DNA of 64,000 nucleotides from Hormiphora californensis. Lineage: Eukaryota > Animalia > Ctenophora. The notes beneath the pieces were generated by a model. It was not told where the DNA came from. It did not search any database and saw only the letters and a list, made by a program, of their open reading frames with translations. The stretch is from NCBI GenBank assembly GCA_020137815.1, contig CM035357.1, positions 7,192,001-7,256,000 on the forward strand. The letters are read 5' to 3'. This document shows, one piece after another, positions 16,020-57,702 of the stretch. Numbering within the stretch: the stretch's first letter is position 1; the number at the start of each line of letters is the position of its first letter. Both the position numbers and the translations under genes were made by a program.

Positions 16020-16959
16020 AGTAACGGTTACTGCCGAATGGATGATAACAACATGTCAATGATCGGATATAACTATCTTTTCTCTCTCTCTCTCTGTAGT
16101 CTGTCTCTCTCTCTCTCTAGCTCTCTGTAGTCTGTCTCTATAATATTCCTCTACCAGACTAACATACGGAGAAAAGTTTTAACAGAGCTCCACTTTTAAA
16201 ATTTCTCTCATTCCCAACACTCATGAGAATCGGTCTCTATTTCTCTTCTTCTTTGCCTCCGGCAAGTCTATTTCTTCCCAACTTAGAAAGGTAACGGCCC
16301 CCCCCCCAACCTACAAACCTTTTCTCCTTCCCCCTCTAGCATTTCCCACACACCTATCCCAATGATATTTATCCCCTTTATGGATTGACATACACATAAA
16401 AATCATCCGCCCGAGATTTTGGTTTTCGTACCGCCATGATCTGGGTGTTATCAGGTTTCCACCGTTTCACAAGATACCCCATTCTCACAAGATGGGCGAA
16501 CACCTGATAAAAATCTATGGATATCCACCGCAGCAGGACGGTGTAAAGATGTTCCAGCGGTAGTGGAATAACCTCCCGGGGACCCAGGAATACTTCCATA
16601 ATTCCAAACTCACACAACAGAAGGGCTTCCTCTGGACAAAACACAAAACCATTCTTGCCCTGGGTGCCCATGAAATGGAATGCGTTACCTTTTGCTTTTC
16701 GTGTCCTACTGACAACATTTCCACCATCTCCACTGATCAGGTCCCCTCTGAAAATACTCCTCTCCTTATTTACAGTTCGTTCCTCGAGCACAGCCCGGTA
16801 CGTTTCCCGGCAACATCGCTCCGTTTCTTGGGACTGTTCGTCAGGGATGAACAGTTTCTCAGGAAGATATTTAGGAAGGTGGGGTGGTTTGAATGCGAGC
16901 TGGAGGACTCTTGGTGGAGGGTCTGGAGGATCCACTCCACTGGTAGACATCATATTCAC
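16020..16959 (-). CDS. TSEN54: tRNA-splicing endonuclease subunit Sen54
   Basis: KGNAFHFMG...FCPEEALLL...YQVFAHLVRMGYLVKRW matches the Sen54 N-terminal domain. The 3' exons are uncertain because of poor sequence. Confidence 0.7.
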
Positions 16960-17465
16960 TACTCAGAGGGAAGGTTGAAAACAGGGAGGGGAAGACGACA
17001 TCAAAGGGGTAGTTTTTATAAACTAGCGCACCCATTGGGTGCGCCTCAAGTAAGGGCTTTTTGATTCGAAAATATTAACAAACTTCCACTGGAAGTTCCA
17101 AAAGTGTGAATGACAGCTTTACAGCTTTGGGCACATAAAGTATTTTATGAAGGAGCACTGTCGCTTAGATACCGCTGAACGAACGGCTTCGACTTCGACG
17201 TCGTTCATCTCCAAATTATAATAGAGATGGATACACACTGTGTATTGCAAAGGGAAGGGTAGGAGGGAAGGAAATGAAAGAAAAGGGAGACGGAGGGTTA
17301 AACGGTAAAAGTAAGGCGGGATTGTAAGAGACAATAATGTAGTTTTCTATAAAGATAGTTAGCAGTAATAAGGGAGGGAGGGAATAAAGAGAGCAATGGA
17401 GAAAGAGATAGAGCGAGATGAATAAAGACGAAAGGGATAATGAAAGCGAAACAGAGAAAGGGAGG

Positions 17466-20185: not shown

Positions 20186-20611
20186 TGCTAAACACAGAGT
20201 TACTAGTTCATAAAATGGGACAATTGAGATGTATAAACTATATCTTATTACAATCCAATGCAATTAATATTTGTAGGTATCACGTATCATATCGTAACTG
20301 CCGAGTGCCGTCCCAGTCTCATCCAACTTGGAGGATAGGAAATCGGATATCATGTTAGAAATCAGATCACGTATCACAATTGCCTAGTGCAGTACCATAA
20401 AAGGAGCGGATTAAAATTGATGGATTAAAATATATATCATAGCTGTTTTCTGAAAAAGACATTGCTAAGACATGTCAAAGGATGGGTAAATAAGTTTTAG
20501 TTTCCCCGAGGCGCGATGAATCCATAGACCCAGTTTGCTATTCTATTGACTATTTCCATAATTAACAGCTTCGTTCAAAAATCTCATTTTACCAGATGCC
20601 AATGTACAACC

Positions 20612-20917
20612 CAGGGGTGTAGGAATAGGGGGGGGGGGGGGCGAGGGGGGCGCCCCCCCCCCACTTTTGGCCAGGTTCGCCCCCTCACTTTTGTCGCCAA
20701 CAGTCAACACTCATTCCCAAATGACGAAATCATGACTTTTTGGCTCAAACCCTAAAAATTTTCTCGGGCTCCGCTGTCGCTCCGCCCGATGTATAGTAAA
20801 TGCAATGGAATAGGTGACTAAATCTTGCTCACAAAAAATTTTCTTGGGCGCTGGCCAGCGCTGTAATTGGTCACGTGACTTCGCCCCCTCACTTGAAAAA
20901 TCATTCCTACACCCCTG
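20612..20917. mobile_element. hAT-family MITE with perfect 8-bp TSD
   Basis: TIR CAGGGGTGTAGGAAT/ATTCCTACACCCCTG; TSD GTACAACC at 20604-20611 and 20918-20925. Confidence 0.9.
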
Positions 20918-23900
20918 GTACAACCAGTGGAAAACGTCAAACGAGGCAAGGCGGGCAACTTTTGGTTCGAAAAACGAATAATGAAAACAAAACAATAAAT
21001 CAATTCATCCTCGGATCAATTTATCCTCGGATCCTCAAGTTCTTCAGGTCACCAGTTCAGTATTTGTTAGACTAGTGATAGCAATCTTCCTCCGATTTCC
21101 TCTTAATGCAATAAGGCATGATCTCAGGAGGGAGAATCGTAGCCTCGTCCTCAGGTGCGCCATCACTTCACTGTACGGTTCTCCGGTTCTTGTGGAGACT
21201 CGGTGTGAGAGAGTCTTGAGCACCTTTTGGAACTCGTTGGCTATCCCGCCTGCTGTATTCATAACCAGCGGAGAGAAGGCACCCCCTTCAACTTCTCTTA
21301 CACGCTTTCCGTACGACTGCTTCTTGCTAGCCTCGTTTCTTCGGTAGAGTTGGTCGAGGGGCGTGTCGATATAGGAGGGCGAATTGGCATGGAAAATTCG
21401 CACATCCATATGAGCCAGCTGCATTTTTCGCCACATGTCAAGTGCTATCACATCCATCCTTGCATCAGGGGCTGTGTTTGCCGAAGGGTGAAAGTGTATG
21501 CCGTCCGGACAAGGGAGAAGTAGCTTCTCTGTTTCCACACCTTTGAGGCCCGCATACGAGCATATCTCCGCCATTAGGTCCCTGATGTTGTCGTGACGGA
21601 GGATGGAATAGCCCCCGGTTGAACAGGACAAGGTATGGTCCGCATTGTTTGGCTTTCCACATACGCATGTCGCGCCCAAATCTTTGACCTCAAACCCGTA
21701 TCGCAGTGCCACTGAGTCGACGAATTCCAATTGATTCAGTTCGAAGCCCAGGTGAGGGTAGGGTGTTGCTGTGAGCCATACAGATGCTCCGGCCTCTCCA
21801 GCGAGCTCTAGACATCTCACTAGCTTTGGGCATGTGATTCTAGTGAGTAACTCTTTGAGAGTGTCTGAGTGGTGGTCCTCATTCTCCTTTGCTATCTTGT
21901 TCCTTGCCTCTCTTGCATTCTTCTCCACTAGAGCCATTTCTATTTCTTCTTCGTTACGGCATAGTATCAAATCAACAAGGGGCTTCGTCAATGCTCGGGA
22001 GTTGCTGTATGATCTGTCAGAGGTTTTGACCGGGTTCTCAATTCCCATTCCACCTTTTCCAGAGGGGAGTGCCAGTATCTCCCGTTCTAGGTCGGACACT
22101 TGACGGCCCACCAGACATGGAATCAACTGTGAACGGATGGTGTGTTCAAGCGGATCAAACAGATCACTGATGTCTGGAACTGTTCGCTGGAGAAAGGCCC
22201 ACTTGAATCGGAAGCTTCTCACAAAGTTGCTGTACGCCAAATGAGGATGGGCTTTGGCAATAGCCACAAGATTTTCCAGCTCAATGCACCATTTGGAAAC
22301 TGCAGCAGAAACAAATGTTTGCTTGAAGGTCTCAGATCCTATGGAAGCACCTAGGTGACGAGCACCTTCAGCAGTGATTTGAACCCCAGTATCTCCAAAC
22401 AGTCGCTTAGCATGGTCGAGCAGTTCAGGTTTCACGATAAGATGGCACTTTGCAGGGTTTACAAAATATCCGAAACTGGGGCCAAAGGTTGTCACCTTGT
22501 CAAACCACTCTAACAAGCCCGTGAGCTTCCCTGCATTGTTTGCATCATCTGCATACCACACTTGTGTTGTATCTGGCGTCTCCGCAAGCTCGATCAGTCT
22601 TAGTATGCCAATTGAGTAGAAGTCCATTGCAGCTGGATCTCCCTGTGTGGCTCCTTCAGAGCTCCACAGTAGCTTTTCACCAACAAAAAGTGCCCTTGGC
22701 TTCCCGTAGATGTTGGTCAGAAATGTGGAGAGGTCCGGACAGTAGAAGGTAGTGTTCTTCAGGGCCATTTTCCGGTTGAGATTGTTAAACGCGTTCTGGG
22801 CGTCCAACAACAGTACACCTTCACATTCCTCAGATTCAAACTTCTCACTCAGTGCATGGATCGCTGCCTCCACACCTCCTAACTGACCTGCAGCTAGTTG
22901 AACCTTTCCAGCCGCACTCTTGATGTCCGACTTGATGGTGCGAATAATGGCCTTGGTCATAACACGTCTGAAACACTCTCCTATTCCAATAGGACGTGTT
23001 CCACCTCCAGGCTTGGCAAGGGGCATGAGGCGACTTGCACAGAAAATGTCCAAAGCTTTCAAGTCAACCTGCTCTGTGGCTAGGGTCCGAGCTGCTTTTG
23101 CAAGCGCTGTGCACAGTGCTGGGGGTGATTTCTTGAATTTCCTGGAGCAAAGGATTCGGTGTATTCCTGTTGCATCTAGTCCACTTGGTCCTCCACTACC
23201 TTTGAGGCTTTTGCCGCATGAGAAAATCGTTTGCCCATTCATACCGTCAAAGGTGACTTCCAATACTGCATCTGTTGGCCCCTGTCTCGCCAGGGTACTG
23301 TTGGCAGGCTGACCCTTTGGGTGTTTCTCTAGCAGATCAGACAATACGGACTCGTCGTTGCAGTCCTTAACTCCAGTTGTATGCCTCTCGGGGTTCAACC
23401 ATGCAGTTGCCTCTGTAACTCTCCCCTCTCTGGTTAGGTCCACAAACCTCTTAGTGCAGAGTTCAGAAGATGGGACATTGTGCTTCAATGGTTTCTGGAT
23501 AACCTTGGCTTCCCGAACCAACGCCTCAAAGTCTCCATCGTGCCACAGTTTTAGGCGTCGTTTGAGAACTTGAGCATGCTCCCGATTCTTCGACTTCTTG
23601 GCCGGCTTCTGGAGTAGCAGCAGTGGGGCTATAACCAAAGCAGATAAGGACCATCCTCTGGTGTCTTCCCTATCACTGAAGAGACCTGCCAGTCTGGTAA
23701 GTTCATCAATGAAAGAACGGCCCACTTGACCGAAGGGAACTTTGAACAGGTTGGTTGACCATCCCTGACTGATCATAGAGATGTTGGAGAAAGCCTCGAT
23801 GAGCTCTTCCCCATTCAACGGTCCCCAACAGTTAGCTTTACAAGGCTCTGTAGTCTTCCAAACTAATCTGTTTAGGTTGAAACAGGCAGTACAATACCAC

Positions 23901-23949
23901 ACTACAGGTGTATGAACCATTTGTTCAGATTGATTAACCGGTGTCATAC

Positions 23950-23992
23950 AGTTTCAGGCTTTTCGGCACTACTTTAAACAAATTAATTTGAG
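23950..23992 (+). other. Genomic copy of spliced-leader exon at LINE 5' end
   Basis: AGTTTCAGGCTTTTCGGCACTACTTTAAACAAATTAATTTGAG, not followed by GT. Matches my recollection of the ctenophore SL 3' part and aligns with the copies at 44564 and 44967. Confidence 0.8.
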
Positions 23993-24042
23993 GACGCAAT
24001 GTTCTTGGATTAACAGCCTGTTTTAGCCATGGAGTTTTAGGA

Positions 24043-24486
24043 ATGGTTGTTAACAACGCCTCCAACATGATTCTAGACAACACACCTCTAGAGGAAGTCT
24101 TTACCAGGGTATCATCGCCCGTGTTGGAGAGGATTATACAGATTGTACAAAAGGAGCTAGAGAGGCGTAAGAGAGATGGAGTTCCAGAAAAGGATCCGAA
24201 TCAGTTTGTTACCCACCACGGGAGATATGTTTCTGATGAGGACCTCGAGATGATGAAATGGGAAGTAGGAGGATTAACTGGCAAGAATACCTGGCTAACT
24301 AACACTGGGTGTCCCTACGGGTGGGCCAATGTGGACCTGCCACCCAGGGACATAACTAAATACCCGAACATTAACAAGCTGATGGGGAGGATTAACAAGG
24401 ACCAAGGGACTGAGTTCAACTCCTGCCTAGTCACTAGATACAGAAAAGGGGACGGCGTGGGATACCACTCAGATTTCGAGACTTCG
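24043..24486 (+). pseudogene. Truncated AlkB-like 2OG-Fe(II) dioxygenase domain (LINE ORF1 position)
   Basis: WL..TGCPYGW....INKLMGRIN....FNSCLVTRYRKGDGVGYHSDFE (HxD at 24466-24474). The distal His/Arg motifs are lost at the deletion junction near 24486. Confidence 0.75.
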
Positions 24487-26003
24487 CTGGTGCAGATAAT
24501 ATTGACGGTGTTGTGCTTAAGAAATGTCATAAATCCCTAGCTTATCCACTCACCCTTATATTTAATAAATCATACTCAGAGGGATGTATACCAACAGAAT
24601 GGAAAACCGCGAACGTTGTCCCAGTTTACAAGAAAGGGGAACGATCATGCGTTGAGAATTATAGGCCTATATCCCTGACTTGCCTTGTTATGAAAGTTTT
24701 TGAGAAATTAGTAAGAGAACGCCTATATAAAGCTTGTCTAGAAAAAATAACTCCCTACCAGCATGGTTTTGTACCCTTGAAATCATGTACATCACAACTG
24801 ATTGAGTTTAATTGTGAATTAGCGTTGAACATAAATAACCGAAATCAAACTGATATAGTTTACTTTGACTTTCAGAAAGCCTTCGATAGTGTATCTCATG
24901 ATGTAATAATAAATAAGCTGAAAAATGAGTTTAATTTAGGAGGTAAGATGTTACGTTTCCTAATGAATTATTTATCTGGTAGGCAACAGAGGGTTGTGTT
25001 AGATGGGGAATTTTCAGAATGGGTAGAGGTTAGGAGTGGAGTTCCACAAGGATCAATACTAGGTCCTTTCTTGTTTGTGTTATTCATAAATGATATTGTT
25101 AATGTTTTAAGAGAAGATGATCTAACCAAAATTAGGCTATATGCAGATGATCTGAAAATTTGGCGGGTTATAAATAGTGAAGAAGATAGTTTGCAGCCCG
25201 ACATCGATAGTTTAGTGGAATGGGCAAAGGATAATAAAATGATATTCCATCCTAAAAAGTGTAAGCTGCTTAGGTGTACTAAAATTATTAAACAACGTCA
25301 ATTAAATTATCACCTAGGCAGAGATGAAATCAAATTATGTGAAAATGAAGTTGATCTAGGAGTCTCAACTAATCACAAGTTGTCGCCAATCGAACACCAG
25401 AAAAATGTTGTTTCCAAAGCTTCTCAAAGATTAGGACTGGTGAAGCGTGTAGGCGTATTAGTTAAATGTCCCCTTAAAAAGAAGAACCTCTACATTAGTC
25501 TAGTTAGATCTTTGTTCGAACACTGTAGCCAAATATGGCGTCCACAAAGTGAGTCAAGTCTGCTTAAGTTTGAACGACTCCAGAAACGTGCCACAAAATG
25601 GATATTCGGTGAAACAGATACCAGTTATAGTTTAGATACGTATATAAAGAAACTCAGGGAGATTGACGTACTCCCAATGACTCAAAAATTCCAATATAAT
25701 GATCTTAAATTGTTCCATAAAATATTCTATGAGACGTCTCCTATAAAACTCCCATCTTTCCTACAAAAATACAATTCGGAATTACATGACAGACGTGCCA
25801 CCAGACAACAAACAAAACGAGACAGTACGGACATTATATGTACCGAACAACCCAGAGTAGACCTGTTCAAAAACTGTTACTTTTATCGCTGCCACCTTGA
25901 GTGGAACTTACTTCCTAAAGAACTGAGAAATACAGCTGAACACCATTTATTTTCCTCTAGACTGAAAGACCATCTCTGGAAAGCCTTACACGACATAACT
26001 TAA
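24486..26003 (+). CDS. LINE ORF2 reverse transcriptase (no APE domain retained)
   Basis: Open frame from AGADNIDGVVLKKC..LAYPL..IFNKS through YADD to WNLLP. Confidence 0.9.
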   Translation, partial: AGADNIDGVVLKKCHKSLAYPLTLIFNKSYSEGCIPTEWKTANVVPVYKKGERSCVENYRPISLTCLVMKVFEKLVRERLYKACLEKITPYQHGFVPLKSCTSQLIEFNCELALNINNRNQTDIVYFDFQKAFDSVSHDVIINKLKNEFNLGGKMLRFLMNYLSGRQQRVVLDGEFSEWVEVRSGVPQGSILGPFLFVLFINDIVNVLREDDLTKIRLYADDLKIWRVINSEEDSLQPDIDSLVEWAKDNKMIFHPKKCKLLRCTKIIKQRQLNYHLGRDEIKLCENEVDLGVSTNHKLSPIEHQKNVVSKASQRLGLVKRVGVLVKCPLKKKNLYISLVRSLFEHCSQIWRPQSESSLLKFERLQKRATKWIFGETDTSYSLDTYIKKLREIDVLPMTQKFQYNDLKLFHKIFYETSPIKLPSFLQKYNSELHDRRATRQQTKRDSTDIICTEQPRVDLFKNCYFYRCHLEWNLLPKELRNTAEHHLFSSRLKDHLWKALHDIT

Positions 26004-27336
26004 TTCGCTGCTGTGGTGTGGGCCCCTTTCTCTTCTTTTAACTTTACAGTAACTGTCCTTCTTCCGCACATAGCTTTCATTCTTACATTGTACTCAAATT
26101 GAAGGTTTGGAGTGGTGTTGAACAGTTTGAAACAAGATGGTGGACCCGCACCACAGATGTGAATTATAACTGATCTTAACATCTACCCAACAGTCGACAT
26201 GACGTTAAATTCGGGGTATGGTTCATGGGGGAGGGAGGTGGGGGATTGGGAATCAAGGGTAAGTATTAAGTATAATTGTTATTATTATTGAGTGAAATAA
26301 ATTTAGCTTATAACTAGTATAAGAGTGTGTCGTAGCCTTATAGCTACTTTTTTTAAATATTTTTAAATTAGTTTTTTAAGACGTAAGCACTCGCGCCATA
26401 GGCTGCTAAACTATTAGTAAGAGTCAGTCGGGTATTTATTTAATGTGCAATTTGTACGTTTATATAATATCTATTTCAAATCAAATCAAATCAGGTCTGG
26501 TGAAAAGGTTCATGACATGCTTCACATTTGGCATTCTCATAAGACGGCAGTGTTTCATAGCATTGCCCACACTTCTCTTCTGTAAACCACCTCGACTCAT
26601 TTATCAATCTGCTTATGGGCGTTGAGTTTGAAATGGGTGTTCCCCTTGTGATGCTGGTGTTGGGAGTAGCATAATCATGGTCACCGTCTGAAGCCGATCC
26701 TGAGCTGTCGGAGGATAGAGAGTCGTCAGGGGATACGACAAACGATCTGAGGTGAGCTTGTGGGTGGAACGGTCTATGTAGGGATGATGACGGCCGAAGG
26801 GCTACTGGTGAGAGACGTGCCTTGGCTTTGGATCGCGTGATCATGTGATCGGGGTGGTGAGTGATTGTTGAGAATTCTCAACTTGTTGGGTGTATGAATA
26901 ATAAGTCCTTTCCGCGGAAATTTCCGGGAAGAACTTTGACGTTTCGTTGAGTGTGCTCAACTAGAAAAAGAAAATAAAGAAGAGATCTTGTTGATCTTAA
27001 CGTCTGGAACCCTCTCTGGCCTATCGATGGCCAGAGAGACAAATAGCAACAAAACGAACTTTAAAAAATCAGACCTATTTCCCAATCCGAAATCAAAAAC
27101 GAATCGAAAATTTACAAAAATCTGTCTGTTTTAAAAACTTCCAATCTCTTGATTTTTGCGGCCGCAACGATGAAATACGACAAATCGCGCGTTACATCAT
27201 AAGCAGCGGGACAATCTTTCAGAGCGCGTCCCAAAGATTCTCAGGATTCGCGGAGAGCTGGGCCGCGGTTCCAAAGTTTAAAACTTCGAGACTCGCAGTT
27301 TCAACTTCCTCCGACCTTTTCGTTTCGTTTGCAGTC

Positions 27337-28065
27337 ATGTCGCGTTCGAATCATGTACAGATGGCCAAGCTGGCTGAGCAGGCTGAGAGATACAGTGACA
27401 TGGCAGTAGAAATGAGGAAAGCTATCGAGGTATGCTCTGGAAGCATCGGTGAAGATGAGAGGAATCTATTTTCTGTGGCATACAAAAATGTTGTTGGTCA
27501 GCGAAGATCTTCGTGGAGGTCGATGGCTGGGATTGAGAAGAAGTTGGAAGAGAGTGACCCAAAGCTGCCCCTTGTCAGGGATTATAAGAAGAAGATCGAA
27601 GGATGAGCTGACGGAACTGTGTAGTGAAGTGTTGTCAATTCCTAAACGGTATGCTATTGAATCAGTGCACGGAGAGTTGTGGGAAAGTATTTTATCTGAA
27701 GATGAAGGGAGACTACCTGAGGTACCTGGCGGAGATTAAGAAAGATGCAGGAGGATAAAGTTGAGGTAGGGAGCTGCTGCAGGATGTTTACCAGGAGGCC
27801 TGGGAAGTTCTCTCAAGCGGAACTGGAACCAACACATCCAATCCACCTGGGTCTGGCCCTCAACTACTCTGTCTACTACTTCGAGATCATGGATGACAAA
27901 GAGAAAGCCTGTCAGTTGGCTAAATCAGCGTTCAATGATGCCATCAGTATGCTGGATAGTTTGAAAGAAGATAGTTATAAGGACAGCACGCTCATTATGC
28001 AGCTACTTCGAGACAACCTGACGCTGTGGAGCGCTGAAGGGGACGATGAGGAGGATGGGAAATAA
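27337..28065 (+). CDS. 14-3-3 protein, intronless (several 1-bp frameshifts at 27600-27800)
   Basis: [68 protein letters not shown]. Confidence 0.9.
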
Positions 28066-29018: not shown

Positions 29019-29669
29019 ATGACTGACTGTGATACGCTGATTATCCTGGCCAAGTGGGCGGAGAGTGCGGAACGATATGACGACATGGCTGAATACATGA
29101 AGGAGGTAATATTATCGTGAATAACTTTGCGGGCGGAGAGTGCATTTTCTCTCTTGTTCTCAGTACATGCGCCATGGAACATGCACTCATTCTTATCTCT
29201 CTCTTCCCATGCATACTTATCACCCATATCAGGTTTCCCTAACCCATTCTTATCAGTATACTACTCTACCCTTAGCACGCTATGTGTGCTGATGTATCAC
29301 CATGATTTAACTCGTTTATGACATAAACACCAGATACATGTTCAAATTATCAAAAAAAGCCCCACCCATCTGTCCTATCCTAAACAGTTCACCCCTCCCC
29401 CTCCAGATGACTACACAAGTGAAGGAGCTGTCCCAGGAAGTGCGAAACTTGCTCTCTGTTGCTTACAAGAATGTTGTTGGAGCTCGACGGTCCTCCTGGA
29501 GGGTTCTCTCTTCCATCGAAGGAAAGGTTTGTGCTATACCTTGTCTCTCAACACATTTAGTTGTCTTCTACTTTATACACCATTTAGATTCTCTCCTCTC
29601 AACATCTCTCTCCCTCTCTCTTCCCTCCTTCTTTCTCTTTCTCTCTTGCTCACTGTTTCTCTTGCTCAC

Positions 29670-29751
<82 letters not shown>

Positions 29752-32700
29752 TTCTCTCTTTCTCACTGTCTCCTCGCTATGTTTCCATCACGCTCGCCAG
29801 TAATTGTATTCACCTCTGTGCGTCTCTGCTCCAGACCGACAGACACAATAGCACGTTTTTTCATTTCATATTACAGTTCTCCACAATTATTTGTCTTGTT
29901 TTACATAATCTTGCACCTGATCGCTATTTCTTTCTCTCCTGAGCTCTTCCTCACCTTCTCCCACTCTCACGGTTAAATAATTTATGTGGAATATGAGATA
30001 GTGAGAGAGAGAGGGAGGGATGGAGAGGAAGAGATAGGAGAGAAGTGCAAGTGTGTGTGTGTGCAGCTTCCTTCACTCCTGTGCAACACTGTTCTCATAC
30101 ATGCATAATATTGAGCAACTTTGCATTGTGCGTGTGTCTTCTGTCTGTGAGTTTGTTCCTTCCCATTCTTTTATAATGCATCATAGATCTGGTCTTTGTC
30201 CCCATTTTCATCCCGGCCCCTGAAGTAGTAAATAACACCCCCGAATGGTTTAGAAAATAACACCCACTTCCCTAATCCCTTCCTTCGCCCTGTAGTAAAC
30301 AATACCCTCTCCCTCAGGTGAAAGATGACGCCAAGAAGGCTACCCAGGCTACCACATACAAGAAGAAGATCGAGGATGAGCTGACAGACTTGTGTAACAC
30401 TGTCCTCAACCTTCTCGACGAATATCTGATCCCCAACGCTACTGAGGATGAGAGCAAGGTAAGGAAAGGGAGAAAGTGAAGTGAGATATAGAGAGTAAGG
30501 TGAGGAAAGAGAGAACGGGAGAAAATGAAGTAAAATCGGGCACACAATAGATGAGAGAAAGAGAACAGTAAAGAGAAATAGCAGGTGCCAAAGCGGTAAA
30601 TGAGAAGCAGAATTTGGGGATGAGTAAAGGAGAATCTTTTGTTCCTGGCCCAAATACGGAGAAAAAACGGTGTAAAATTTGCATGCTGTGCTTTCTGAAT
30701 GAGCCTTTGTTAGGTATTATGTAGGAAATATTGTGAGCAATAATGTAGGATCCAGATATAAATAGGTATTTCTTGAGTCTCGATACTCTTGATTTACTCT
30801 TGATTTACTCTTGATTTACCGAAATCTCATATATATATATATAATTAAGCCAAAAACTAATTGGAATTAGTTGGCGGGAAAGGTGGCCCACTTACACCTT
30901 TTGCTGCTACCGGGTACCACGAACTGTCATTCTCTTCACGTCACGTCGGTATCTCAATCTCTCTCTCTCACCCTTTCTTTCTCTTTCTCTATTTCACTCA
31001 CCTCTTATATCCCTGATACATTTTAAAATAAAACCCGGCATCAGGCAAAGGTGTAAGTGGGCCACCTTTCCCGCCAACTAATTCCAATTAGTTTTTGGCT
31101 TAATTTAGGTCCCTTTTTGGTTTCTAATGTCAGTATGACATTATTTCATGATGTAAAATTGTCAAAATGATGTGTTATATGAGAAACGAGACGAATTTCT
31201 GTGAAAATCGTAATTTTGACGTCATTATGACATCATCTGACGTAATTAGTGACGTCGTAACGACGTAATTGCATCACAATATATTTTGAATGAATACCCT
31301 GAAGGAGCTTGTAAAGTATCATTAACCGCAGTGGTCAGGAAAGGGAGTTTTTGCTAGAAAAACGTTCAATTTGCTGAATTTTTCGTCAAATTTTTGACTT
31401 CCGACGCAATTTAAGGGCTCAAAATGATGAGCTACGAAAATTCGCAATATAGTAACTGAAAGTTCAGACGATTTGCCGGTAACGATTTTTTGTCAAATCA
31501 AAAATCGGAACACGTCTCAAGGGTGCTAGAGGCGTTTGAAAAAAGTTAGTCGGTCTCGCGCAATGACGTCACTCGTGACGTCATTGCGCGCGTCATAGGC
31601 AAGATGAAGAGTCGCCACCAGAATGGGTACATGCACGAGACAATTATCTGTCGATTGCCGCTTGGTTTAAGGTCGTACGATGTCTGGTTCGTCTCAAACT
31701 GGGACCAAACGGAAGGTAACAAAGCGTCTATACATGTATCTATGTATTATACCAAAACTAATTGAAATTAGTAGGCCAGAAAGGTTGCCCTATGATTTGA
31801 GCTACCTTTGCCACCGTAACATTTGCATTCATGGGGTAAAAACAAGGTATAACAGATGCTTCTATCTTCAAAAGGAAATGTACTGGTGCCAAAGGTAGCT
31901 CAAATCATAGGGCAACCTTTCTGGCCTACTAATTTCAATTAGTTTTGGTATAATTTGCATCATTTTTGGGATTTTTTATCCATTTAGATGTAGTAGAACA
32001 AGTACGGAGAGGATGGAATCGTTAAGTTGAATTTTTTTTCATTTTTGACGTCATTTTGACGTCATAAAATGACGTCACGACGTCATGACGTCAAAATTTT
32101 GACGTCATATCATCGGGATTACCTAGATGAAGATACTGACCAAGTTTGAGATCGATTGGATAAGATTTGAGTCCGCTATGGCGAAAAAACCCAATCGTCA
32201 TATCTATTCTTAAACAGTCGTAACACTTCAGACGCGTTTTAAGACCCTTATACATGCAGTTTTGAAAATTCCCGATATAGTTTCTGAAAGTTCAGACAAT
32301 TCTCTTTCCATGATATAGTCTTCGTTTTTCGATTAGAATCCGTCTTTAGGGTGTAAATTGAGCTCAAAGAATTTTGGTCAGAGTCTGAAAAATGACGACT
32401 TTAAGACGTTCTGTAGGACGTTCCTGGCGATGAAAAGGGACGCCACCTCAACTAATGCACACACATCCAGTAGATCTACCAGCTGTGAAAACGAGAAGTT
32501 TCTATCTTTTTTCGTTTGGCGTGAATATGGTTTATAAAAAGCGTCTCTCCTACGCGCGCGCGTGCGCGCGCGCGCGCATATGTGTTACACTGAATCTAGG
32601 GCAAATGGGACCTGTCTGTAACTTCAGTTCCAGATGAGATAGAGACTTGAAATTTTGGACTTAAGTTAATGACCCCGAGCCGGGTATACATTCCAAATTT

Positions 32701-35384
32701 CAAGTCAAACGGATGAATGGGAGCCATGCTATAGCCTTCTGAAATCTGGGTTTTCAGTCAAAACACCCATAAAACGTATAACTGCGTTTCTGGCGGCGCT
32801 TTGCTGTTTGGGGGAGGGGGAATGGCAACCTTTGCGCTTGCCAGCGCAGTGATGTATGTATCAACCTAGTTATCCCCACACTGAATTTTCTGTTTTGGGG
32901 GTGGTGTTATAACTTTTGAACAAAATGAGCTAGCCACTTGAAATTTTCACCATCGATAGATGTCTACAAGAAGCTTCTGAGTACAAAATTTCAGCTTCCT
33001 AGCTCATCCGGTTCCGGAGTTATGGCGTGTCAAAAAGTGCCAAAATGGGCTAAAAGTATGAAATAACTATATATACGCTGTGAGCAAGCGGGCCGTTTTT
33101 TGGGGGAATTTTTTTCGGGGGGTTGGATGGGGCCACCTTTGCGCTTGCCAGCGCAGTGACTTATCCACTTATATATAACTTATCCACTTATATATAACTT
33201 ATCCACTTATATATAACTTATCCACTTATATATAGAAAAAGAGAGTCTGAGATATATCTCAGACTCTCTTTTTCTCATTATCGTAAATGTTGGTAAGTGG
33301 ATAAGTTATTCTGAGAACTCTTTTTAACAGTGCCTCCTCTCTCCTCCAGGTGTTTTATATGAAGATGAAGGGAGATTACTACCGATATCTTGCCGAGGTC
33401 GCTGAGGGTGAGGCTCGAAACAAGACCGTCCAGAACTCCCACACCGCTTACGAGGATGCCTCCAAGATTGCCCAGAATCTTTACCCCACCCACCCCGTCC
33501 GATTGGGTCTTGCCCTCAACTACTCCGTGTTCCACTATGAAATTCAGGGTACGTGTAATCTTCTGTCTGAAACGAATCTTTCTCCCTTGTCTTTTCGCCG
33601 GCTGTCTAACGGGTGGCCTACTCTGTAATATGGGGTGGTCTCATGTCATACATTTTATCTCTATCCTGCACTCTGCAGTACCCACATTGTCCTTGATCCA
33701 GTGCAGACACTGTGTAATACCACACTGTACTACTATACAGACACTGTGTAATACCACCCTGTATTGGGTTGCATGTAGCAGCAACCAGGTGGTCTATTAC
33801 TACAGGGGTGGGCATAAAAAATGTCCGCCCTAGACTAGCATGGTTCCAGATATCGTAGAGCGCCAACATTTAGCAAAGTTACTCTATGGGACAAATAAAT
33901 AGGTTGACCAAAATTTCAGACTTTTAGCTCAAGGTTCATTTTTTTGATCGGAATGAACATTGTCATTCATTCCAAAAAACATGAATTTTTGGTCCAGAAG
34001 TTAAACAATTGTCTTTGGCTAACGAATTTCTTTCAAATGCGACCAAGAAAATCAAAAACAGACAACCACAAGGCACACAGTGGTCATGTTTCTGACAAAT
34101 AGTCAGGTCATGTGATCCCCACCGAATCGTGAATTGCTAATCAGGCTTATTGGGGAAGAATCACGTATCATAGCCGCTAATGAGGGATGTGTATCGAAAA
34201 AGCGACATGTGATTCGAAAGCACTGGGATAAAGAGGCCACTTGTTAATGAGGCTCGGATCTCATGGCCAATCATCTTCGTCATCCCTCATTGGCGGCTGT
34301 GATACGTGATTCTCCACCACTAATCCTGATTAGCAATTCTGAATAAATTACACGATTCGGTGGGGATCACATGACCTGACTAACTGTCAGAAACATGACC
34401 ACTGTGTGCCTTGTGATTGCCCGTTTTTGATTTTCTTGGTCGCATTTGAAAGTAATTCGATAGCCAAAGACAATTGTTTGACTTCTAAGCCGAAAATTCA
34501 TGTTTTTTGGAATGAATGACAATGTTCATTCCGATCAAAAAAATGAACTTTGAGCTAAAAGTCTGAAATTTTGGTCAACCTATTTATTTGTTCCATAGAG
34601 AATCTCTGCCAAGTTTTAGCCTTCTACGATATCTGGAACCATGCTAGTCTAGGGCGGACATTTTTTATGCCCACCCCTGTACATTGTTGACAGCTTTATC
34701 CCTACACACCCTTAGTAGAGAGGGGGGAGATGACGCGTTATGTAATGACCAAAAATAGAGAGATAAATGTGTGGTGTTATGTTTCTAGGGCAATGAATTA
34801 CAATGAATTAGAAGATGGGGTGCGGAACACAATGAACGATGATGTCATGAGTGTGTGATCTAATTCTCACATAATGATGATATTCTCTCTATTTCCTTCC
34901 CTTTTTTTCTCTCCCTCCCTTTCTAGTTTCTCTGTCTCTCTTTCTCTCTCTCCCCGACTCTCACATTTCTGAACTAGATACCCTACCCTTTTTTGTTCTA
35001 AGATGAAAGAGATCAGTTAAATATTCTCAACCAACCATTATACCAATCTGGGAAATCTTCCTTTTCTCACTCACTCCCTTTATTGTACATCTACTGAAGC
35101 CACTCCCAATTATAGTTATCCCATCTCTCATCCCTTTTCTAATCGAAATATTCTTGCTCTAACCCAGTTAGTTATCTCTCTTTCAATATCCCCATCTTTC
35201 AGGATGCCCGGACAGTGCCTGCAAGTTGGCCAAGGAATCATTTGACCAGGCTGTCGCAGAGCTGGACTCCCTAGACCAGGAGAGCTATAAGGATAGCACA
35301 CTTATCATGCAGTTGCTGAGGGACAACCTCACACTATGGATGAGTGAACAGGATGGAGAGGAAGAGGGTGGTGAGGAGAAATAG
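29019..35384 (+). CDS. 14-3-3 protein, 5 exons
   Basis: Exons 29019-29105, 29407-29526, 30318-30458, 33350-33549 and 35203-35384 contain all the 14-3-3 signature motifs. Confidence 0.92.
30843..33160. mobile_element. Non-autonomous Helentron-like element (outer) in 14-3-3 intron
   Basis: 5' foldback 30843-31105; subterminal IR AAGGTGGCCC/GGGCCACCTT plus terminal hairpin TGCGCTTGCCAGCGCA; flanked by short tandem repeats (ACTCTTGATTT x3; ACTTATCCACTTATATATA x4). Confidence 0.55.
31746..32852. mobile_element. Related Helentron-like element nested in the above
   Basis: 5' foldback 31746-31955 (CCAAAACTAATTGAAATTAG..AAGGTTGCCC); 3' end GGCAACCTTTGCGCTTGCCAGCGCAGTGA. Confidence 0.55.
33803..34679. 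mobile_element. Tc1/mariner-type foldback MITE with TA TSD
   Basis: About 390-bp inverted arms beginning CAGGGGTGGGCATAAAAAATGTCCGCCCTAGACTAGCATGG; TA on both sides. Confidence 0.9.
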
Positions 35385-40892: not shown

Positions 40893-42506
40893 TTATTTTA
40901 AAAATCGTCTCAATAACATTCCAACAATACACCCCACAGACACAACTACAACAGAAACAACAGCTGTCCTGCTAGTCCACCCTCCAGATCCCGGTTCATA
41001 CCTTGTTACCTTGTACACTTCATGTCCCTCCATCTCAACCAGCACCCCTGCTGACATGCCAATAGAAGGTAGCGCCACCAGACACCCTCCATCCATCTCC
41101 CTCACACTAACATCCCCGAACGCACTGAACACCCTAGACACATGATCCGGTGAGATGGTACACCCATCCACACGTGATACCACCAGCCACTGAGGTCGAC
41201 CAAAGACCGGGTCCTCTCCTGCGAGGTTGATGTGGGTCAGTGAACACCTGATGAGGTTAACATGGTTCCTGTATCCCTCCAACTCCCTCCGATAGTCCAT
41301 ATAATGGAATGGTTTGGTGTACGGTGAGGTGTTGTTAACCGTAGCTGAGAAATGTGCTAGCCTCACAAAGACAGCCCCTGCCAGGAATGAATCATAACCC
41401 GCGTTGTGAGCCTTCATTCCCATTTCCGTGGAAAGGTTGCTTTGGATCCGTGGTTGGTACTCCATCCCCCGCACAAAGGGCCCGTTACATTCTTCATACA
41501 GATTTAGCAGGCTGGTACTCCGGAAGAAATTACCGTACTTTTCATCATTTTTGAGGGTTACCTTTATATTGCTGATAATATGGCGTGTATCATACACTTC
41601 TGGAAACTCTCTCGAGAACCGCCGTTTGAATTCTTCATAGCACTCCGGGAGGGGTTTATAAAACTTGTGATACATATACAACAGGTCCATCAGGACATTA
41701 TGTCCTATGATCGGAGTCCTAGTTTTCCTGAGTAACCGAACAATATGTGTAAAACCTATCGCATCAGATAACTCTCTTGCTTTGTTTTCCCCTTCCTGTC
41801 TGTTGAACTCCTCCTTTCCCCCGTCAGAGTCCACCTTCATCACTTCCAGGGTAGAATTCTCCCCCGGTAACTGGTATGCGACAATGTCAGGGAAGTCGGG
41901 TGACGTCATAACGTCTGATATAAGAACCTCCATCATCCCCCTACTAAACGCATCGATAATGGTCTTTTCCTGGTGTCTCGCCTCACCAGACCACCGCTTG
42001 AGAAATTCCTGTTTCCGGCTACGGAATGCCTTTTTTACATCGTTCAACAGAATTTCCTCGACCCGGGGTGTGTCAGGTGATATGATCTGGAGGTTTGCGA
42101 TCTCTTCCTCGTTTAAAAATGGGATCCCCCCGTAGAAACTCTTGTTGAAATCAAAGTCATGGCTCATGAGGAAATGACATGCTGCTGTTTCGTAAATTAC
42201 ACTCTGAGATAAATTCTGGTAGAGTCGAGGATGAAGAGCAAAGTTGTACGAAGTGGAATCATAGTTTCTCGATATTCGATCATAAGTGAAAACTGTCAAT
42301 CCGCACTGTAAAGGAGAGAAATCTTTACAACTTTCCTTCAGGATGTGATACCGCTCTTTCGGTGTGTCAAATAGGCTGACATTGGGACATCGATTCGTGT
42401 GAAGTCCAGAAAACTCAAAATCTAGGCAAACAAAAGTTGCATTTTCCAAATTCTCCTCAAACTTTGTGACGATTTCGTGGAAGTTCTTGACAGTGACATC
42501 AACCAT
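40893..42506 (-). CDS. PNLDC1: CAF1/PARN-family DEDD 3' exonuclease with C-terminal TM helix (PNLDC1-like)
   Basis: LDFEFSGL, GHNVLMDL, YDTR, AHNAGYDS; C-terminal TAVVSVVVVSVGCIVGMLL followed by RRFLK; intronless. Confidence 0.75.
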   Translation of the reverse strand: MVDVTVKNFHEIVTKFEENLENATFVCLDFEFSGLHTNRCPNVSLFDTPKERYHILKESCKDFSPLQCGLTVFTYDRISRNYDSTSYNFALHPRLYQNLSQSVIYETAACHFLMSHDFDFNKSFYGGIPFLNEEEIANLQIISPDTPRVEEILLNDVKKAFRSRKQEFLKRWSGEARHQEKTIIDAFSRGMMEVLISDVMTSPDFPDIVAYQLPGENSTLEVMKVDSDGGKEEFNRQEGENKARELSDAIGFTHIVRLLRKTRTPIIGHNVLMDLLYMYHKFYKPLPECYEEFKRRFSREFPEVYDTRHIISNIKVTLKNDEKYGNFFRSTSLLNLYEECNGPFVRGMEYQPRIQSNLSTEMGMKAHNAGYDSFLAGAVFVRLAHFSATVNNTSPYTKPFHYMDYRRELEGYRNHVNLIRCSLTHINLAGEDPVFGRPQWLVVSRVDGCTISPDHVSRVFSAFGDVSVREMDGGCLVALPSIGMSAGVLVEMEGHEVYKVTRYEPGSGGWTSRTAVVSVVVVSVGCIVGMLLRRFLK

Positions 42507-43086
42507 TCGACTGAAGGATATAAGTTGTTAGATACATTAAACAAATCACGTTTCAATCCAACCACTGGATATAATTCTGAGAACCACTGGATATAATTCT
42601 GAAACTGTTTCATGCCCTTCCATATATTATCACTGTTTTGTCAAGGGAAATATAAAAATTTGTTTAACCCACTGCAGTCGTATCGAGGCATGAAGACGCA
42701 GCAGTTTTGCATCATAGAAGATATCATAGTTCCATTGTTGGACATTCTGAATCAAATTTGAATGAGGGAAAGATAGAGGAGTGCCTTTCTTAAAACAATA
42801 GTTCCTCTTTCTCATAGCAGCGAGATATAATAAAGATTTAGCAAGAGGGGAAGAAAGAAACAGAGATAAAAATGAATGGTTTACTGGTTATCTAGTTAGA
42901 TACAAGTTTTCATGTGGTACTATTGAAAATAATGATCATTCAACAAGCTAGACTCGTATTGATATTTTTGAGCTCTCCAGGGGGTGGGGCAGTTTTTGTA
43001 GCTTGGACATGTTTTTAGTATACAGAGAGTTCTAAATTTTCGTATGAAGATGTTTTTCTTTGTTCCTAACACAACTCTCATCACAG

Positions 43087-44223
43087 ATGTCAGATGAAGG
43101 AGAACTCAAACTTAACTATCGCGGATTTTCCACGGCCGTGACTTCTACCGCAGCTATCTTCGTTATCATACTTTCTCTTCAAACATTGATCAATGAAGTA
43201 CAAAACAATAACCTGGCGATAATGGAATATGTCGAATACGTTGAAAACACTACAACGAATATCACGATCGATACTATAACAAACGAAACGAGTGAAGAGG
43301 ACCAGAAGGAGGAAGTTTTCATTGTGTTTGTGATTCCAATTGACCCTGCTGATTTTGAGCGGCGCCAAGTGATCCGTGAAACATGGGCTAATCGTTCCAG
43401 TTGGATAGACTACAAGGAGAAGACCAATACGACATCTCCCCAGGACGAGTACTACCGAGAATTTGCCATCATGTTTATTATGGCCGATCCAGATTTGGAA
43501 TATAAAGAGGCTGCAGCTGCCAGGGACAAAGAAGACAGTGATGATGAAACAACTGAAACGGCAGAAGAAGAAAGCGATAATGCTAGTGAGGAAGAAGCTG
43601 AAGATATCAGCGAGTTGTTAAAGGAAGAAGCAGAAAGGTACGGTGATATTTATGATGTGGATGGGCTCGATGAGGGGTATCACCTGATAAAATACAAGGT
43701 TCTCTGGGGCCTGAGACAGAGCCTAGCGCTATACAACGCCACCTATATCATTAAAACGGATGGAGATATTCTTGTCAATATGCCAGTCCTGATTAGGAGA
43801 CTAAAAAGAGAATCACGGACCGGTCTCTACACAGGGCTCTGTCATGGACACAGTCTACCAGCTGATGTTTTGAAGTTTACGGTTACACATGGGAGTATTC
43901 CCAATTGGAGTTACTGCTCAGGAGGAGGGTATATCTTGTCCCGTGATGTGGTGGAGAGAATCATGGAGCTGTCACGGGAGGTTGAACGGATTCCTATCAT
44001 TGCTGAGGATATGTACACGGGGTACCTTGTTGCTAGGTTACAAGAACCAGCAGTGTATGCAGTTAATGATGGTGGATGGTTGAAATTGAATCTGATTAAT
44101 TTAGATCCTATAATTTTGAATACAAAGGTATTTTTTCACGGGCTTAAAAAACTGAAACTTTTTAGATTCATTTTGGACAGTCTCAATGAGGCCCCATTTT
44201 TACCTGCGGCTGATAACCATTAA
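43087..44223 (+). CDS. GT31 beta-1,3-galactosyl/GlcNAc-transferase (type II membrane)
   Basis: N-terminal TM, RRQVIRETW, EAERYGDI, IKTDGD, YCSGGGYILS, EDMYTG. Confidence 0.85.
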   Translation: MSDEGELKLNYRGFSTAVTSTAAIFVIILSLQTLINEVQNNNLAIMEYVEYVENTTTNITIDTITNETSEEDQKEEVFIVFVIPIDPADFERRQVIRETWANRSSWIDYKEKTNTTSPQDEYYREFAIMFIMADPDLEYKEAAAARDKEDSDDETTETAEEESDNASEEEAEDISELLKEEAERYGDIYDVDGLDEGYHLIKYKVLWGLRQSLALYNATYIIKTDGDILVNMPVLIRRLKRESRTGLYTGLCHGHSLPADVLKFTVTHGSIPNWSYCSGGGYILSRDVVERIMELSREVERIPIIAEDMYTGYLVARLQEPAVYAVNDGGWLKLNLINLDPIILNTKVFFHGLKKLKLFRFILDSLNEAPFLPAADNH

Positions 44224-45009: not shown

Positions 45010-48000
45010 GCGGCACCCCCCCCTCAATTGTTTCAGTCGTATGTACCTACACTAAGTGGACGAGAGGAACCCGAGACTGTACGATCAACCCGAGAACACC
45101 CCTTCCCCAGAACCACTCCCCCTCCGAACCGAGCCTCACTTGCACTGTGATGACGTCCCTAAACCAAAAAACATTGACAGGGCCCAAGATTCCCTTTGCA
45201 AATTGAAACCTTCTCATCTTTAAAAACTCGGTTCCCAATAAAAGTCCAAAACTTGCCCCCTCAACTGAAAAGGCGGGTGTTTCTCCAAAATACTACCAAA
45301 TCTGTCTTTCATGAAAAAGTGCACTCCTTCCTTTTTTCCCCGTTACCTTCTCCCCCATGCTCCCCAAACTCTCGAAAGTTCCTCGAAAACTTAGGCAAAA
45401 AATGATCTCCAAAAATTTGTTCTCCCCTCTCATTGTTTTTTTAAACAAATCATCGGACCGAACTTCAACGGTGGCCTAAAACTCCCTGTTGAACTGAAGA
45501 CAACTTCCAGCAAAGGAAGGGTTTTCTTTATATTCATCGTGAAGTCTACCATCGTGTGCACATTAAAAGGTGCCCCCATTGTCAAGCTCTTGGGCACTAT
45601 CCCGACCAATGCCCAAAACGATTTGCATCCTGCTACCTGCATGTACTGTGCTGAAAAACATCCAACAAATGATTGCCCGGTAAAAGAAGACACGGAGAAG
45701 CATCAGTGTAAAAACTGTCTACATTCCAGTCGTTCCAACCCAGATATCCCAGTCCATCATGCTGGTTCATCAAAATGCCCCACCTATAAAGAACAGTACG
45801 ATAAGCTCTCAAAAAAACTACCGTCTTTCGCAGCTCCCTGCACTCAAATACGGAAATCTAAACTGCCGATCGATGAATAACAAGCTCATTGACATCTGTG
45901 AAACGTTCCACGACCTTGGTCTGGATTTTTTCCCTTAAAAGACCTGGGGGAATGGCACATCGTTACTCCCTGAGTGATGAAAGTTTGGGTTAAACCCCTC
46001 TTATTCTCAAGAGGAAACGAGGGGGGGGTTGCTATTCTTGCAAAAAAAAAGCATAAAAATCCGTACTGTGAAACTAATAAAACCCCAAAAACCTTTAAAA
46101 ATCTACACTACCGTTAAGGAGGAAACCCCCAAAAGGACAACTAGGGTTGAAATTCGGGCCACCTTCTACCTCAAAAAAAGATTTCTGATTGAGTTTGAGG
46201 AATACTTTCCTCTAAATGGACAATGGTCTCCCTTTTTTTGGAATTTCAAACATCCACACTGAGGATGAAAACGATCCAAACGTCAAAAGCCTTTACAATT
46301 TTCTTATAAGATGGATAAAACCTGGAAAAACCCTACGCAGTCGCTGGAGGGACTTGACCTGCATCACGAGACGATGAGCTCCCACCAATCATGCTATAGG
46401 TCGCGAAATCGCATTTTGATATTTGCATAACCCTTTCCCATTCCATGTGGTAAAACCTACACCAGAAAAAAATGGTAACAGCAGAAAGATGAAAAAACGT
46501 AACCCTGGAGGCCCTTTCTTCTAAAATAGCAGATTCCTCGCTAGTCTACCCGCTGAGACCTACTGAACTAGAAGACTGCTTACGGCTGTATTATGATACT
46601 CTGATGAATATCCTCGATGAATTAGCCCCAGTTGAGGAGATGACTGTTAAAGAATCAGATAATCCACCCTGGTACACTAAAGAGTGTGTTGATGCCAAAC
46701 GAACTCGCAGAAAATACGAGAGAGCGTTCAAAAACTGCCCTTAAGAAAGCTAAGAAGAAATCGGACTACAGCGATGCATGGATAGCCCTGAAAAACTTCA
46801 CCGATGAAACTTCTAGGTTATTACGAAAACCAGAGTATCCTACTACCGTGAAAAACTGAAACTGGTTGCTGATGATCCAGCAGCGGTAAGCGGTATCATA
46901 AACAAGCTTCTTGGTAAAGACAAGATCCCTCAGGAACTACCAAGTGGATGGTCGGATGAAGAAGCAGCGAACAAATTTAGTGCTTACTTTAAATCAAAGA
47001 TCGAAAACATCTATGAGATGATTAAAGTCGAGAAAGCACTTAATGGATGTGTTCCTGACCTTTCCGAGGAAACCACCTTTAAAGGAAATTCCTTCTCCTC
47101 TTTCAAGAAAGTGAGTGATGAGGATCTCACTGCTATTATAACGTCGATGAGCAAGAAGCACTGTGATCTTGATCCGATACCTACTCGAACTCTAGTTGGA
47201 CTCTTACCGCAACTATTACCTATTATATCTGACATTGTCAATGGAAGCCTTCAAGAGGGAAGATTCCCTGAAATGCTGAAACAATCCCTGGTTAGGCCAT
47301 CTTTCAAGAAAAAGGACAGTCCCGAGGATATGAAGAATTACCGTCCTGTTTCTAATTTATCCTTCATCTCGAAGATCATCGAGAAATGTGCGGCGGCCCA
47401 ATTAACTGAGCATCTGGAGGAGAATATTTGTTTCCAGGAGTGCAATCAGCTTACAGAACACATCACAGCACTGAGACCACTCTTGTGAAGGTGGTCAACG
47501 ATCTCCTGCTCATTACTGACGAGAAATCCAAGGCAATCCTAGTACTTTTAGACTTGAGCGCTGCTTTCGATACCATCAATCACAAGATACTCCTGGGGAA
47601 GCTGAAAAAGGAACTATGGTGTGACAGGGACTGCTCTCTCTTGGTTGAGTCCTACCTGACGGACAGAAAGGCCTCGGTAAAAGTTGGAAACTCGACCTCA
47701 TCGCCAGTGGCTATAACCATCGGAGTTCCTCAAGGATCCATCTTAGGGCCCCTTTTGTTCATTCTCTATACCAAAGAACTTGAGAGTATCGCTAAGCACT
47801 ATGGTTTACTAGTAGAGCTATATGCTGACGATACGCAGCTCTATGTTTCATTTACCAACAACAAACTAGTTGACTTGGAAAAGACACTTCAGGAATGTCT
47901 CAACCATATCAAGGTGTGGATGGCAGACAACTTTCTTCGACTAAATCCTTCGAAAACTGAATTCATCGTTCTTAGAAACAAACACGACAAAGAAGCGAAT

Positions 48001-48537
48001 CCAGAAGCTATAAAAGCACTAGACGACCAAGATCCATCTGTTCCAGCCCCACTGGTGCGAAACCTTGGTGTTTTCCTTGATTCGGAGCTTTCACTAACTG
48101 GAAACGTTTCAAAAAACAGTAAGAGCATGCAATCTGTGTCTCCTGAATCTTTGGAAGATAGGTAATACACTAACTATCGACCTCAAAGTGAAGCTAGTCA
48201 ACACCCTTGTACACAGTAGGCTTGATTACTGCAATAGTCTACTTGCGGGAGCATCTGCTAAAGACCTCGGGAGGTTACAAAAGGTTCAAAACGCTGCCAC
48301 AAGATTCATCACGGGACGCCGATCTCTTCATAGCACATCAGACATTCGAAAACAGCTTCATTTTCTACCGGTTAAGGAAAGAATTAACTACAAGCTATGC
48401 TTATTGACCTACAAAGCCCTAAACGGTCTAGCACCGACGTATCTTTCTGAACTGGTACAGCGTCGGAAGCACAAGCTGAAGAATCTCCGGCGTGATATGG
48501 ACATAACATATCTTGAAAGGAAATACACCCGTTATTG

Positions 48538-54155: not shown

Positions 54156-54186
<31 letters not shown>

Positions 54187-54356
54187 GGGGGGAAAAAAAA
54201 AAGGTTTTTTTTTTAAAAAAAATTTTAAAAATTTTTTTTTGGGCCCCCCAAAAAAAAAAAAGGGGAAAAAAAAAAAACCCCCCCGGGGGGGAAAAGGGGG
54301 GAAAAAAAAGGGCCCGGGGGGGGGGAAAAAAGGGGTTCCCCGGGGGGGGAAAAAAA

Positions 54357-57700: not shown

Positions 57701-57702
57701 GG

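Follow-up and report, generated by a model that had tools for sequence, protein, structure and literature searches.

Organization of the locus

The 64-kb stretch of the ctenophore Hormiphora californensis analysed here (contig CM035357.1; henceforth the window) carries a broken copy of a long interspersed nuclear element (LINE), the unit that we studied, on its plus strand at 23952-26494. A ctenophore-type spliced leader (23950-23992), whose first two letters overlap the target duplication, forms the 5' end of the inserted copy, and a 50-nucleotide (nt) 5' untranslated region (UTR; 23993-24042) with a four-codon upstream open reading frame (ORF) from 23999 follows. From the ATG at 24043 a frame of 165 amino acids runs to a stop at 24540. 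An earlier note on this DNA had placed an ORF with the AlkB-like motifs FNSCLVTRY...GYHSD between the leader and a reverse transcriptase (RT), and the layout bears this out: the translation holds those motifs, the leader lies upstream, and the RT frame at 24438-26003 matches RVT_1 (E 2.5e-31). The domain family on which that reading depended, 2OG-FeII_Oxy_2 (PF13532), matches the ORF at 34.7 bits, above the Pfam curated cut-off of 31.2 (E 2.8e-8), and among PDB sequences human ALKBH3 matches best (E 0.0014).

The native part of this frame is the first 150 codons of ORF1 (24043-24492, plus strand), comprising N-terminal helices and the first half of an AlkB domain, as judged from the PF13532 match and from 90% identity to residues 1-150 of an intact relative, P0002. 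The stub keeps Y92-x-W94, NSCL and H142-x-D144-x-E146; the distal His and both Arg of AlkB were lost in a deletion. Beyond the deletion joint lies the RT half of ORF2 (24489-26003, plus strand; about 500 open codons, assigned by the RVT_1 match and by identity to a second relative, P0034), which lacks its start and endonuclease. The 491-nt 3' UTR (26004-26494, plus strand) ends in a (TCAAA)n tail and the second copy of a 3-nt target duplication. The window copy is a dead, internally deleted two-ORF LINE, and no working AlkB or endonuclease can come from it. It is the only copy of the unit within the window, and an Rfam search of 20500-27500 returned nothing real, the sole match having an E-value of 0.86.

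Intact relatives link AlkB to the reverse transcriptase

It is very nearly certain that AlkB is a genuine ORF1 domain of a LINE family tied to the window RT, and that this ORF1 has an AlkB-esterase architecture. P0002 is a protein of 478 amino acids with an AlkB domain and an SGNH esterase, and P0003, from Pleurobrachia bachei, has the same two domains and is 62% identical to the window ORF1. The link to the RT is read in two independent places. In P0004 the first 38 residues of ORF1, which share 76% identity with the window and 89% with P0003, are fused to an APE-RT protein that is 90% identical to the window RT, with a breakpoint that differs from the joint in the window. L002 is a natural metagenome contig of 6346 nt, in which an intact AlkB and SGNH ORF1 of 511 amino acids precedes an ORF2 with APE and RT domains. 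Both domains of ORF2 are also found in P0004 and P0034, the latter 95% identical to the window RT. PF13532 scores rise to 57.4 bits in P0002 and 48.5 in L002 ORF1, and Lipase_GDSL_2, the SGNH esterase family, is above its cut-off in the ORF1 relatives. Together with the contigs that continue on either side of the joint, P0004 and L002 uphold the proposal of a LINE family in which AlkB is linked to the RT. The placement of AlkB in ORF1 was also correct; what the earlier note missed is the esterase half of the same ORF1, which is absent from the stub.

The architecture is widespread. Both Pfam domains occur in 25 of the 30 matches to P0002. We searched 1.84 billion representatives (50% identity) with a family profile and analysed the best 150 matches, to which the following counts refer: 103 carry SGNH, among them every one with at least 150 residues past AlkB (99/99), and the other 47 stop earlier. 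A sub-lineage has two tandem AlkB domains ahead of the esterase (9/150, plus P0019 and P0020). Clusters of this architecture in the ESM Atlas have 103, 61 and 66 members, Ctenophora being commonest among the one to three members with a recorded phylum. The relatives P0026 and P0030 are multi-copy, with clusters of 62 and 14 members across many large contigs, and variant subfamilies appear among the contigs of public runs. A metagenome scan confirmed 2 of 96 matches, and a family-pattern scan of viral contigs confirmed none of its 10. Among bacterial and archaeal genomes none of 26 matches to P0002 was confirmed in a search that reaches close relatives only. On general features the family is a putative member of the CR1/L2 group.

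Two further features of the relatives were noted. At residues 36-41 of P0004, seen as protein only, the ORF1 N-terminus and ORF2 are joined in frame, which may reflect splicing of an ORF2 message, a deletion or an error of the gene model. P0034 (residues 150-162) and L002 ORF2 (just ahead of APE) have a long hydrophobic N-terminal region, which ends in what we take to be a degenerate 2A-like motif, NPGP/HPGP.

The deletion joint

The claim that the ORF is cut just after HxD and fused out of frame to the RT proved accurate. The joint is a 4-nt microhomology common to ORF1 and ORF2 (24489-24492, plus strand) and falls after V150, six codons beyond D144; the final 15 codons of the 165-codon frame are ORF2 DNA read in the wrong frame. 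With sizes taken from P0002 and P0034, about 2.9 kb was lost: 328 codons of ORF1, which encoded the distal AlkB ligands, the linker and the SGNH esterase, and about 637 codons of ORF2, including APE. The remainder of ORF1 and the APE domain are therefore deleted, as had been supposed, and contigs from public runs agree. Those over the AlkB piece diverge after 24492 into further AlkB sequence, in one case for about 1000 nt, and those over the RT start matching at 24489 and read leftward into upstream ORF2. Three runs, X2, X4 and X6, cover this site (X22 does not), and in them all depth to the right of the joint comes from contigs that continue ORF2. Contigs lose rare forms, and the "DNA?" label of the runs is a guess, so that the lack of a contig across the joint indicates that the deleted form is rare and nothing more. 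The joint would most likely have arisen by an RT jump of 2.9 kb at the microhomology, or by a later deletion in DNA. An assembly artefact could touch only the joint of the window copy, not the AlkB-SGNH family.

In run X1 the contigs over ORF1 have a depth similar to that of contigs over the RT (250 vs 249-251), which we did not use as evidence, depth being a poor measure. In runs X2 and X6 a diverged 126-nt AlkB piece, corresponding to window 24352-24479, is flanked on both sides by other sequence; it is possibly a captured fragment or another subfamily.

Insertion site and spliced leader

The leader, AlkB stub, RT and repeat tail form a single insertion (23952-26494) with a 3-nt target duplication. 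It lies in a minus-strand element whose 3' part, with an RT and a restriction-like endonuclease, occupies 21044-23951 (969-codon ORF; RVT_1, E 4.6e-9) and whose 5' part, with the N-terminus and a Cys-rich, PHD-like finger split by the insertion, occupies 26495-26844, with its first Met at 26844. The minus-strand frame runs uninterrupted across the insertion site for 1096 codons, and apart from the LINE insertion this host element, which is presumably CRE-like, is intact at about 1085 codons. A contig of run X5 represents the empty insertion site, with a loose end behind 23951. The window copy thus has the hallmarks of a LINE: a (TCAAA)n 3' repeat tail, a 3-nt duplication, an empty site and no long terminal repeats (LTRs). 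Leader, tail, duplication and empty site in one insertion indicate that an RNA with the leader was reverse transcribed all the way to the 5' end, and that its copy entered a young element of the RT/restriction-endonuclease type.

The leader equals the published H. californensis spliced leader, as given in PMC8527503, in 39 of 43 letters. Its 24-nt core has one copy in the window and none in 100 shuffles. The four differences from the published form are all A>G within AA pairs, at 23957-23958 and 23965-23966; they may reflect a species allele, A-to-I editing or misreading of modified adenosines by the RT.

Trans-splicing of the element RNA is likely a trait of the whole family, given the acceptor-like sites of two elements and the contigs that run from leader to ORF1. 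Ahead of ORF1, both L001 and L002 have a single T-rich site that resembles an acceptor and ends in TTTTAG (positions 80 and 568, respectively), and contigs from four runs (X1, X3, X5 and X7, under two organism labels) begin within the leader and continue into ORF1. The surrounding tracts, L001 41-86 and L002 524-574, are similarly T-rich and resemble a branch point and acceptor, a candidate trans-splice acceptor in two divergent elements. Between the two ORFs of L002, a 12-nt stretch resembling the leader was rejected as being at chance level (E 2.6).

Conservation and predicted structure of ORF1

Both predicted active sites are conserved in the AlkB-SGNH family. We aligned 28 of the 30 P0002 matches (P0022 and P0028 omitted), which are 23-64% identical to P0002. 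The iron and 2-oxoglutarate (2OG) ligands H142, D144, H203, R213 and R219 are present in 28/28. Among the esterase residues G296, S298, G316 and N357 are likewise invariant and H458 occurs in 27/28. Tyr at 92 is kept in 24/28, an aromatic residue at 94 in 26/28, and the acidic residue two positions past HxD, E146, in 28/28. In a wider set drawn from the best 150 representatives, HxD is present in 126/127 domains and the distal His with RxxxxxR in 127/127. The distal His and RxxxxxR, which the earlier note had proposed to look for, are accordingly found in the full-length relatives.

Variants read in public runs give a ratio of non-synonymous to synonymous polymorphism (pN/pS) of 0.29 for the AlkB piece (7 synonymous and 7 non-synonymous, p 0.02) and 0.11 for the RT piece (8 and 3), both from small counts. 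An apparent stop variant at 24187 was discarded, as it results from scoring each site separately; the corresponding residue of P0002 is Tyr.

The model of P0002 (mean predicted local distance difference test score, pLDDT, 83) has N-terminal helices at 16-22 and 25-45, then AlkB, a disordered linker at 227-286 and SGNH. The AlkB part is predicted to fold as a double-stranded beta-helix with a nucleotide lid and matches ALKBH2/3 with a template modelling (TM) score of about 0.7 on the target. The SGNH half matches the esterase structure of ZfL2-1 ORF1, 4c1b (E 0.0013).

Which AlkB

By profile scores and predicted fold, the LINE AlkB domain resembles ALKBH2/3, and neither ALKBH5/FTO nor plant-virus AlkB. 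In a PDB profile search ALKBH2/3 come out on top at 54-61 bits and E. coli AlkB reaches 24; the 40 matches listed (E<=1) include neither ALKBH5 nor FTO. The fold search likewise puts ALKBH2/3 at the top; FTO and ALKBH5 come 38th and 39th, with E-values about 1000-fold worse. Y92-x-W94 and E146 align with the Y-T-F loop of ALKBH2 and the Glu of its HRDDE; the ALKBH2 changes F124A and E175A are reported to reduce m1A/m3C repair to 5-10% product (PMC12295762). The hairpin ahead of the lid is far shorter in the modelled LINE domain than in bacterial ALKBH3-like proteins. This, with the loss of the lid Arg, suggests that the LINE AlkB acts on single strands.

A tree of 82 AlkB domains groups the 40 LINE-type rows together (support 99/95) and places the 32 RNA-virus-type rows on a branch of their own (100/100), the remaining 10 being bacterial or phage domains. 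Of 149 domains at the start, 67 were removed because they were short or redundant, the window stub and two viral rows among them; two of 36 viral loci had no domain. Viral rows were chosen by a single motif and do not cover all viral AlkBs. RNA-virus domains score 18-52 bits by profile, against 45-93 for bacterial and phage domains. An initial guess that RNA-virus AlkBs are the closest kin was rejected on these scores and on the separate viral branch. Of the two affinities named at the outset, ALKBH2/3 or viral AlkB, the former stands on profile and fold and the latter is not supported.

Discussion

We give about even chances to a reading in which the ORF1 AlkB would remove N1-methyladenosine- or 3-methylcytidine-type (m1A/m3C) methyls from the element's own RNA or new cDNA and so let reverse transcription proceed. 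Methyl groups on the base-pairing face stall RT, and it is because such methyls block both pairing and copying that repair in cis would pay. Under this model, the element RNA would receive the host spliced leader, and the ORF1 protein, with its N-terminal helices, AlkB, disordered proline-rich linker and esterase, would be packaged with it. The AlkB domain would bind and repair single-stranded nucleic acid in cis, and the ORF2 protein would then copy the RNA from the repeat tail up to the leader. The esterase might target the particle to lipids, as has been proposed for ZfL2-1 in PMC3905857.

Several points weigh against this account or the family on which it is built. L002 is the only intact full-length element read as DNA, and its RT is just 47% identical to that of the window; in most of the family, linkage to an RT is an assumption. 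No listed contig spans the joint or the filled insertion site, and an assembly error at the joint is possible. The pN/pS of the AlkB piece rests on 14 sites. The 2OG-binding Asn of ALKBH2/3 is replaced, with Thr in 19/28 aligned relatives and Asn in 1/28, and the lid Arg of ALKBH2/3 is not conserved. HxDxE is no strict mark of specificity, occurring in 30/32 viral and 3/10 bacterial or phage domains, and the tree holds no host, human or other eukaryotic ALKBH2/3.

The same architecture could serve a different end, with AlkB erasing N6-methyladenosine (m6A) on element RNA, or 6mA or 5-methylcytosine (5mC) at the new insertion, as a counter-defence. The earlier note named such erasure, together with that of m1A/m3C, as what the element might do. 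As the leading function it is not supported here, and we regard it as rather unlikely, since likeness to ALKBH2/3 makes m1A/m3C repair of element RNA or cDNA the likelier activity. It has a precedent in the ALKBH5-type protein of an orchid Gypsy element described in PMC9289625, the folds of ALKBH5 and FTO do match (E 1.6e-9), ALKBH2/3 are reported to oxidise 5mC in vitro (PMC6582317), and retention over more than 100 lineages suggests a steady benefit; but ALKBH5 and FTO fall outside the listed profile matches and some 1000-fold below ALKBH2/3 by fold, and the acidic residue after HxD is kept throughout the alignment. Alternatively, the AlkB fold might be mainly an RNA-binding or chaperone module, with a structural metal and incidental demethylation. 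The esterase ORF1 proteins in RepBase are described in PMC3905857 as having no structural RNA-binding domain, a gap that AlkB could fill. The loss of the 2OG Asn would also suit such a module, as would the paired AlkB domains of nine of the best 150 representatives, reminiscent of tandem binding modules. Five iron and 2OG ligands invariant at 23-64% identity are, however, hard to explain without catalysis, and we consider a purely binding role unlikely.

The enzyme might act on some other substrate in the particle, be it a tRNA, a modified base in the spliced leader or in the cap, or a lipid or protein passed on with the esterase, but this seems to us improbable. That AlkB and SGNH are never apart in the long members would fit it, and the four A>G changes in the leader could be misread modified adenosines; yet those changes may be a mere leader allele of the species, a disordered linker of 60 residues separates the two domains, and the base-stacking aromatics of ALKBH2/3 are conserved. 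The last alternative is an assembly artefact, or else a single event that joined the mRNA of a single-copy host AlkB gene to a LINE RT. The joint, which no listed contig bridges, would agree with it, and so would the spliced leader at the start of the copy, a feature of host mRNAs. Against it, P0004 and L002 independently tie this type of ORF1 to APE-RT, the homologues are multi-copy and the C-terminal half matches a LINE esterase structure. The single-copy origin that would have undone the earlier proposal is thereby contradicted, and we hold this alternative to be highly improbable.

Among known elements the closest in plan are CR1/L2 LINEs with a Type IV esterase ORF1, such as zebrafish ZfL2-1 (PMC3905857, PMC4120745; PDB 4c1b). 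As described there, they share the two ORFs, an ORF2 with APE and RT, a C-terminal SGNH domain with a conserved active site, N-terminal helices, a poorly conserved linker and a repeat tail. Unlike the ZfL2-1 type as published, the AlkB LINE has AlkB, in some members two, between the helices and the esterase, and its RNA is apparently trans-spliced. The Phalaenopsis Ty3/Gypsy element Gypsy_Pa_2799, whose AlkB the earlier note overlooked when it named only plant RNA viruses as precedents, is likewise a retrotransposon that keeps a catalytically intact AlkB domain across many copies (PMC9289625). According to that paper it is an LTR element with a separate accessory ALKBH5-like ORF2, a recent capture of plant ALKBH5 and a demonstrated m6A demethylase, whereas the LINE AlkB is ALKBH2/3-like, fused within the ORF1 of a non-LTR element and deeply diversified. 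The replicases of plant RNA viruses (Alphaflexi-, Betaflexi- and Closteroviridae, cited in PMC9289625) offer another RNA-based parasite with its own AlkB and a proposed role in RNA repair. They resemble the LINE domain in fold, with BFVD matches down to E 2.4e-14, and differ in their separate branch and lower profile scores. Human ALKBH2 and ALKBH3 (PDB 3bu0, 2iuw, 8jnr), the top sequence and fold matches, share the Y-x-aromatic lid, HxDxE, distal His and RxxxxxR; in contrast to them, the LINE protein belongs to a transposon, is about 20-24% identical, has a shortened hairpin and has lost the lid Arg and the 2OG Asn.

Our literature search found no LINE with AlkB; Repbase and the Pleurobrachia genome paper (Moroz 2014) lie outside its coverage and may already describe the family. 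Neither AlkB nor oxygenase occurs as a word in the main text of PMC4120745, a survey of ORF1 proteins, or of PMC3905857, on the esterase, and the portions of PMC4738411 examined mention no LINE AlkB. The classes of LINE ORF1 set out in PMC3905857 and PMC4120745 are RRM, PHD, CCHC, transposase-22 and esterase, with the esterase ORF1s reported there to have no folded nucleic-acid-binding domain. A conserved AlkB with an intact predicted active site inside ORF1 adds a class to these. AlkB is already known in RNA viruses and in the orchid Gypsy element (PMC9289625), and with those cases this would be the third time that an RNA-based parasite has captured AlkB independently, in this case an AlkB of the ALKBH2/3 type. 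The intact natural proteins, P0002 and L002 ORF1, allow a direct test of whether base methylation of the template RNA limits retrotransposition. It is tempting to go further and speculate that an old, phylum-scale ctenophore LINE radiation, with more than 100 lineages at 50% identity, employs its so far undescribed AlkB-esterase class of ORF1 to strip RT-blocking methyls that the host puts deliberately on transposon RNA. We think this rather unlikely; if true, it would reveal an m1A/m3C-based restriction of retrotransposons and a mobile antidote to it, in elements that borrow the host spliced leader.

Other features of the window

A second, unrelated and frameshifted LINE lies at 45395-48556; its ORF1 is Cys/His-knuckle-like with no AlkB, and its RT is 28% identical to that of the AlkB LINE. 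A 14-3-3 copy without introns, interrupted by an in-frame stop and by breaks in the frame (27348-28065), precedes the exons of a second, intron-containing 14-3-3 gene at about 29400-33500. Homopolymer-rich, low-complexity stretches at 53446-55703 and 59440-59983 look like poor base calls in the assembly. Long single-exon ORFs at 40893-42527 (minus), 43048-44223 (plus), 57700-58911 (minus) and 16378-16962 (minus) presumably encode, in that order, proteins resembling a PARN-like nuclease, a galactosyltransferase, an ARL13-like GTPase and a Sen54-like subunit.
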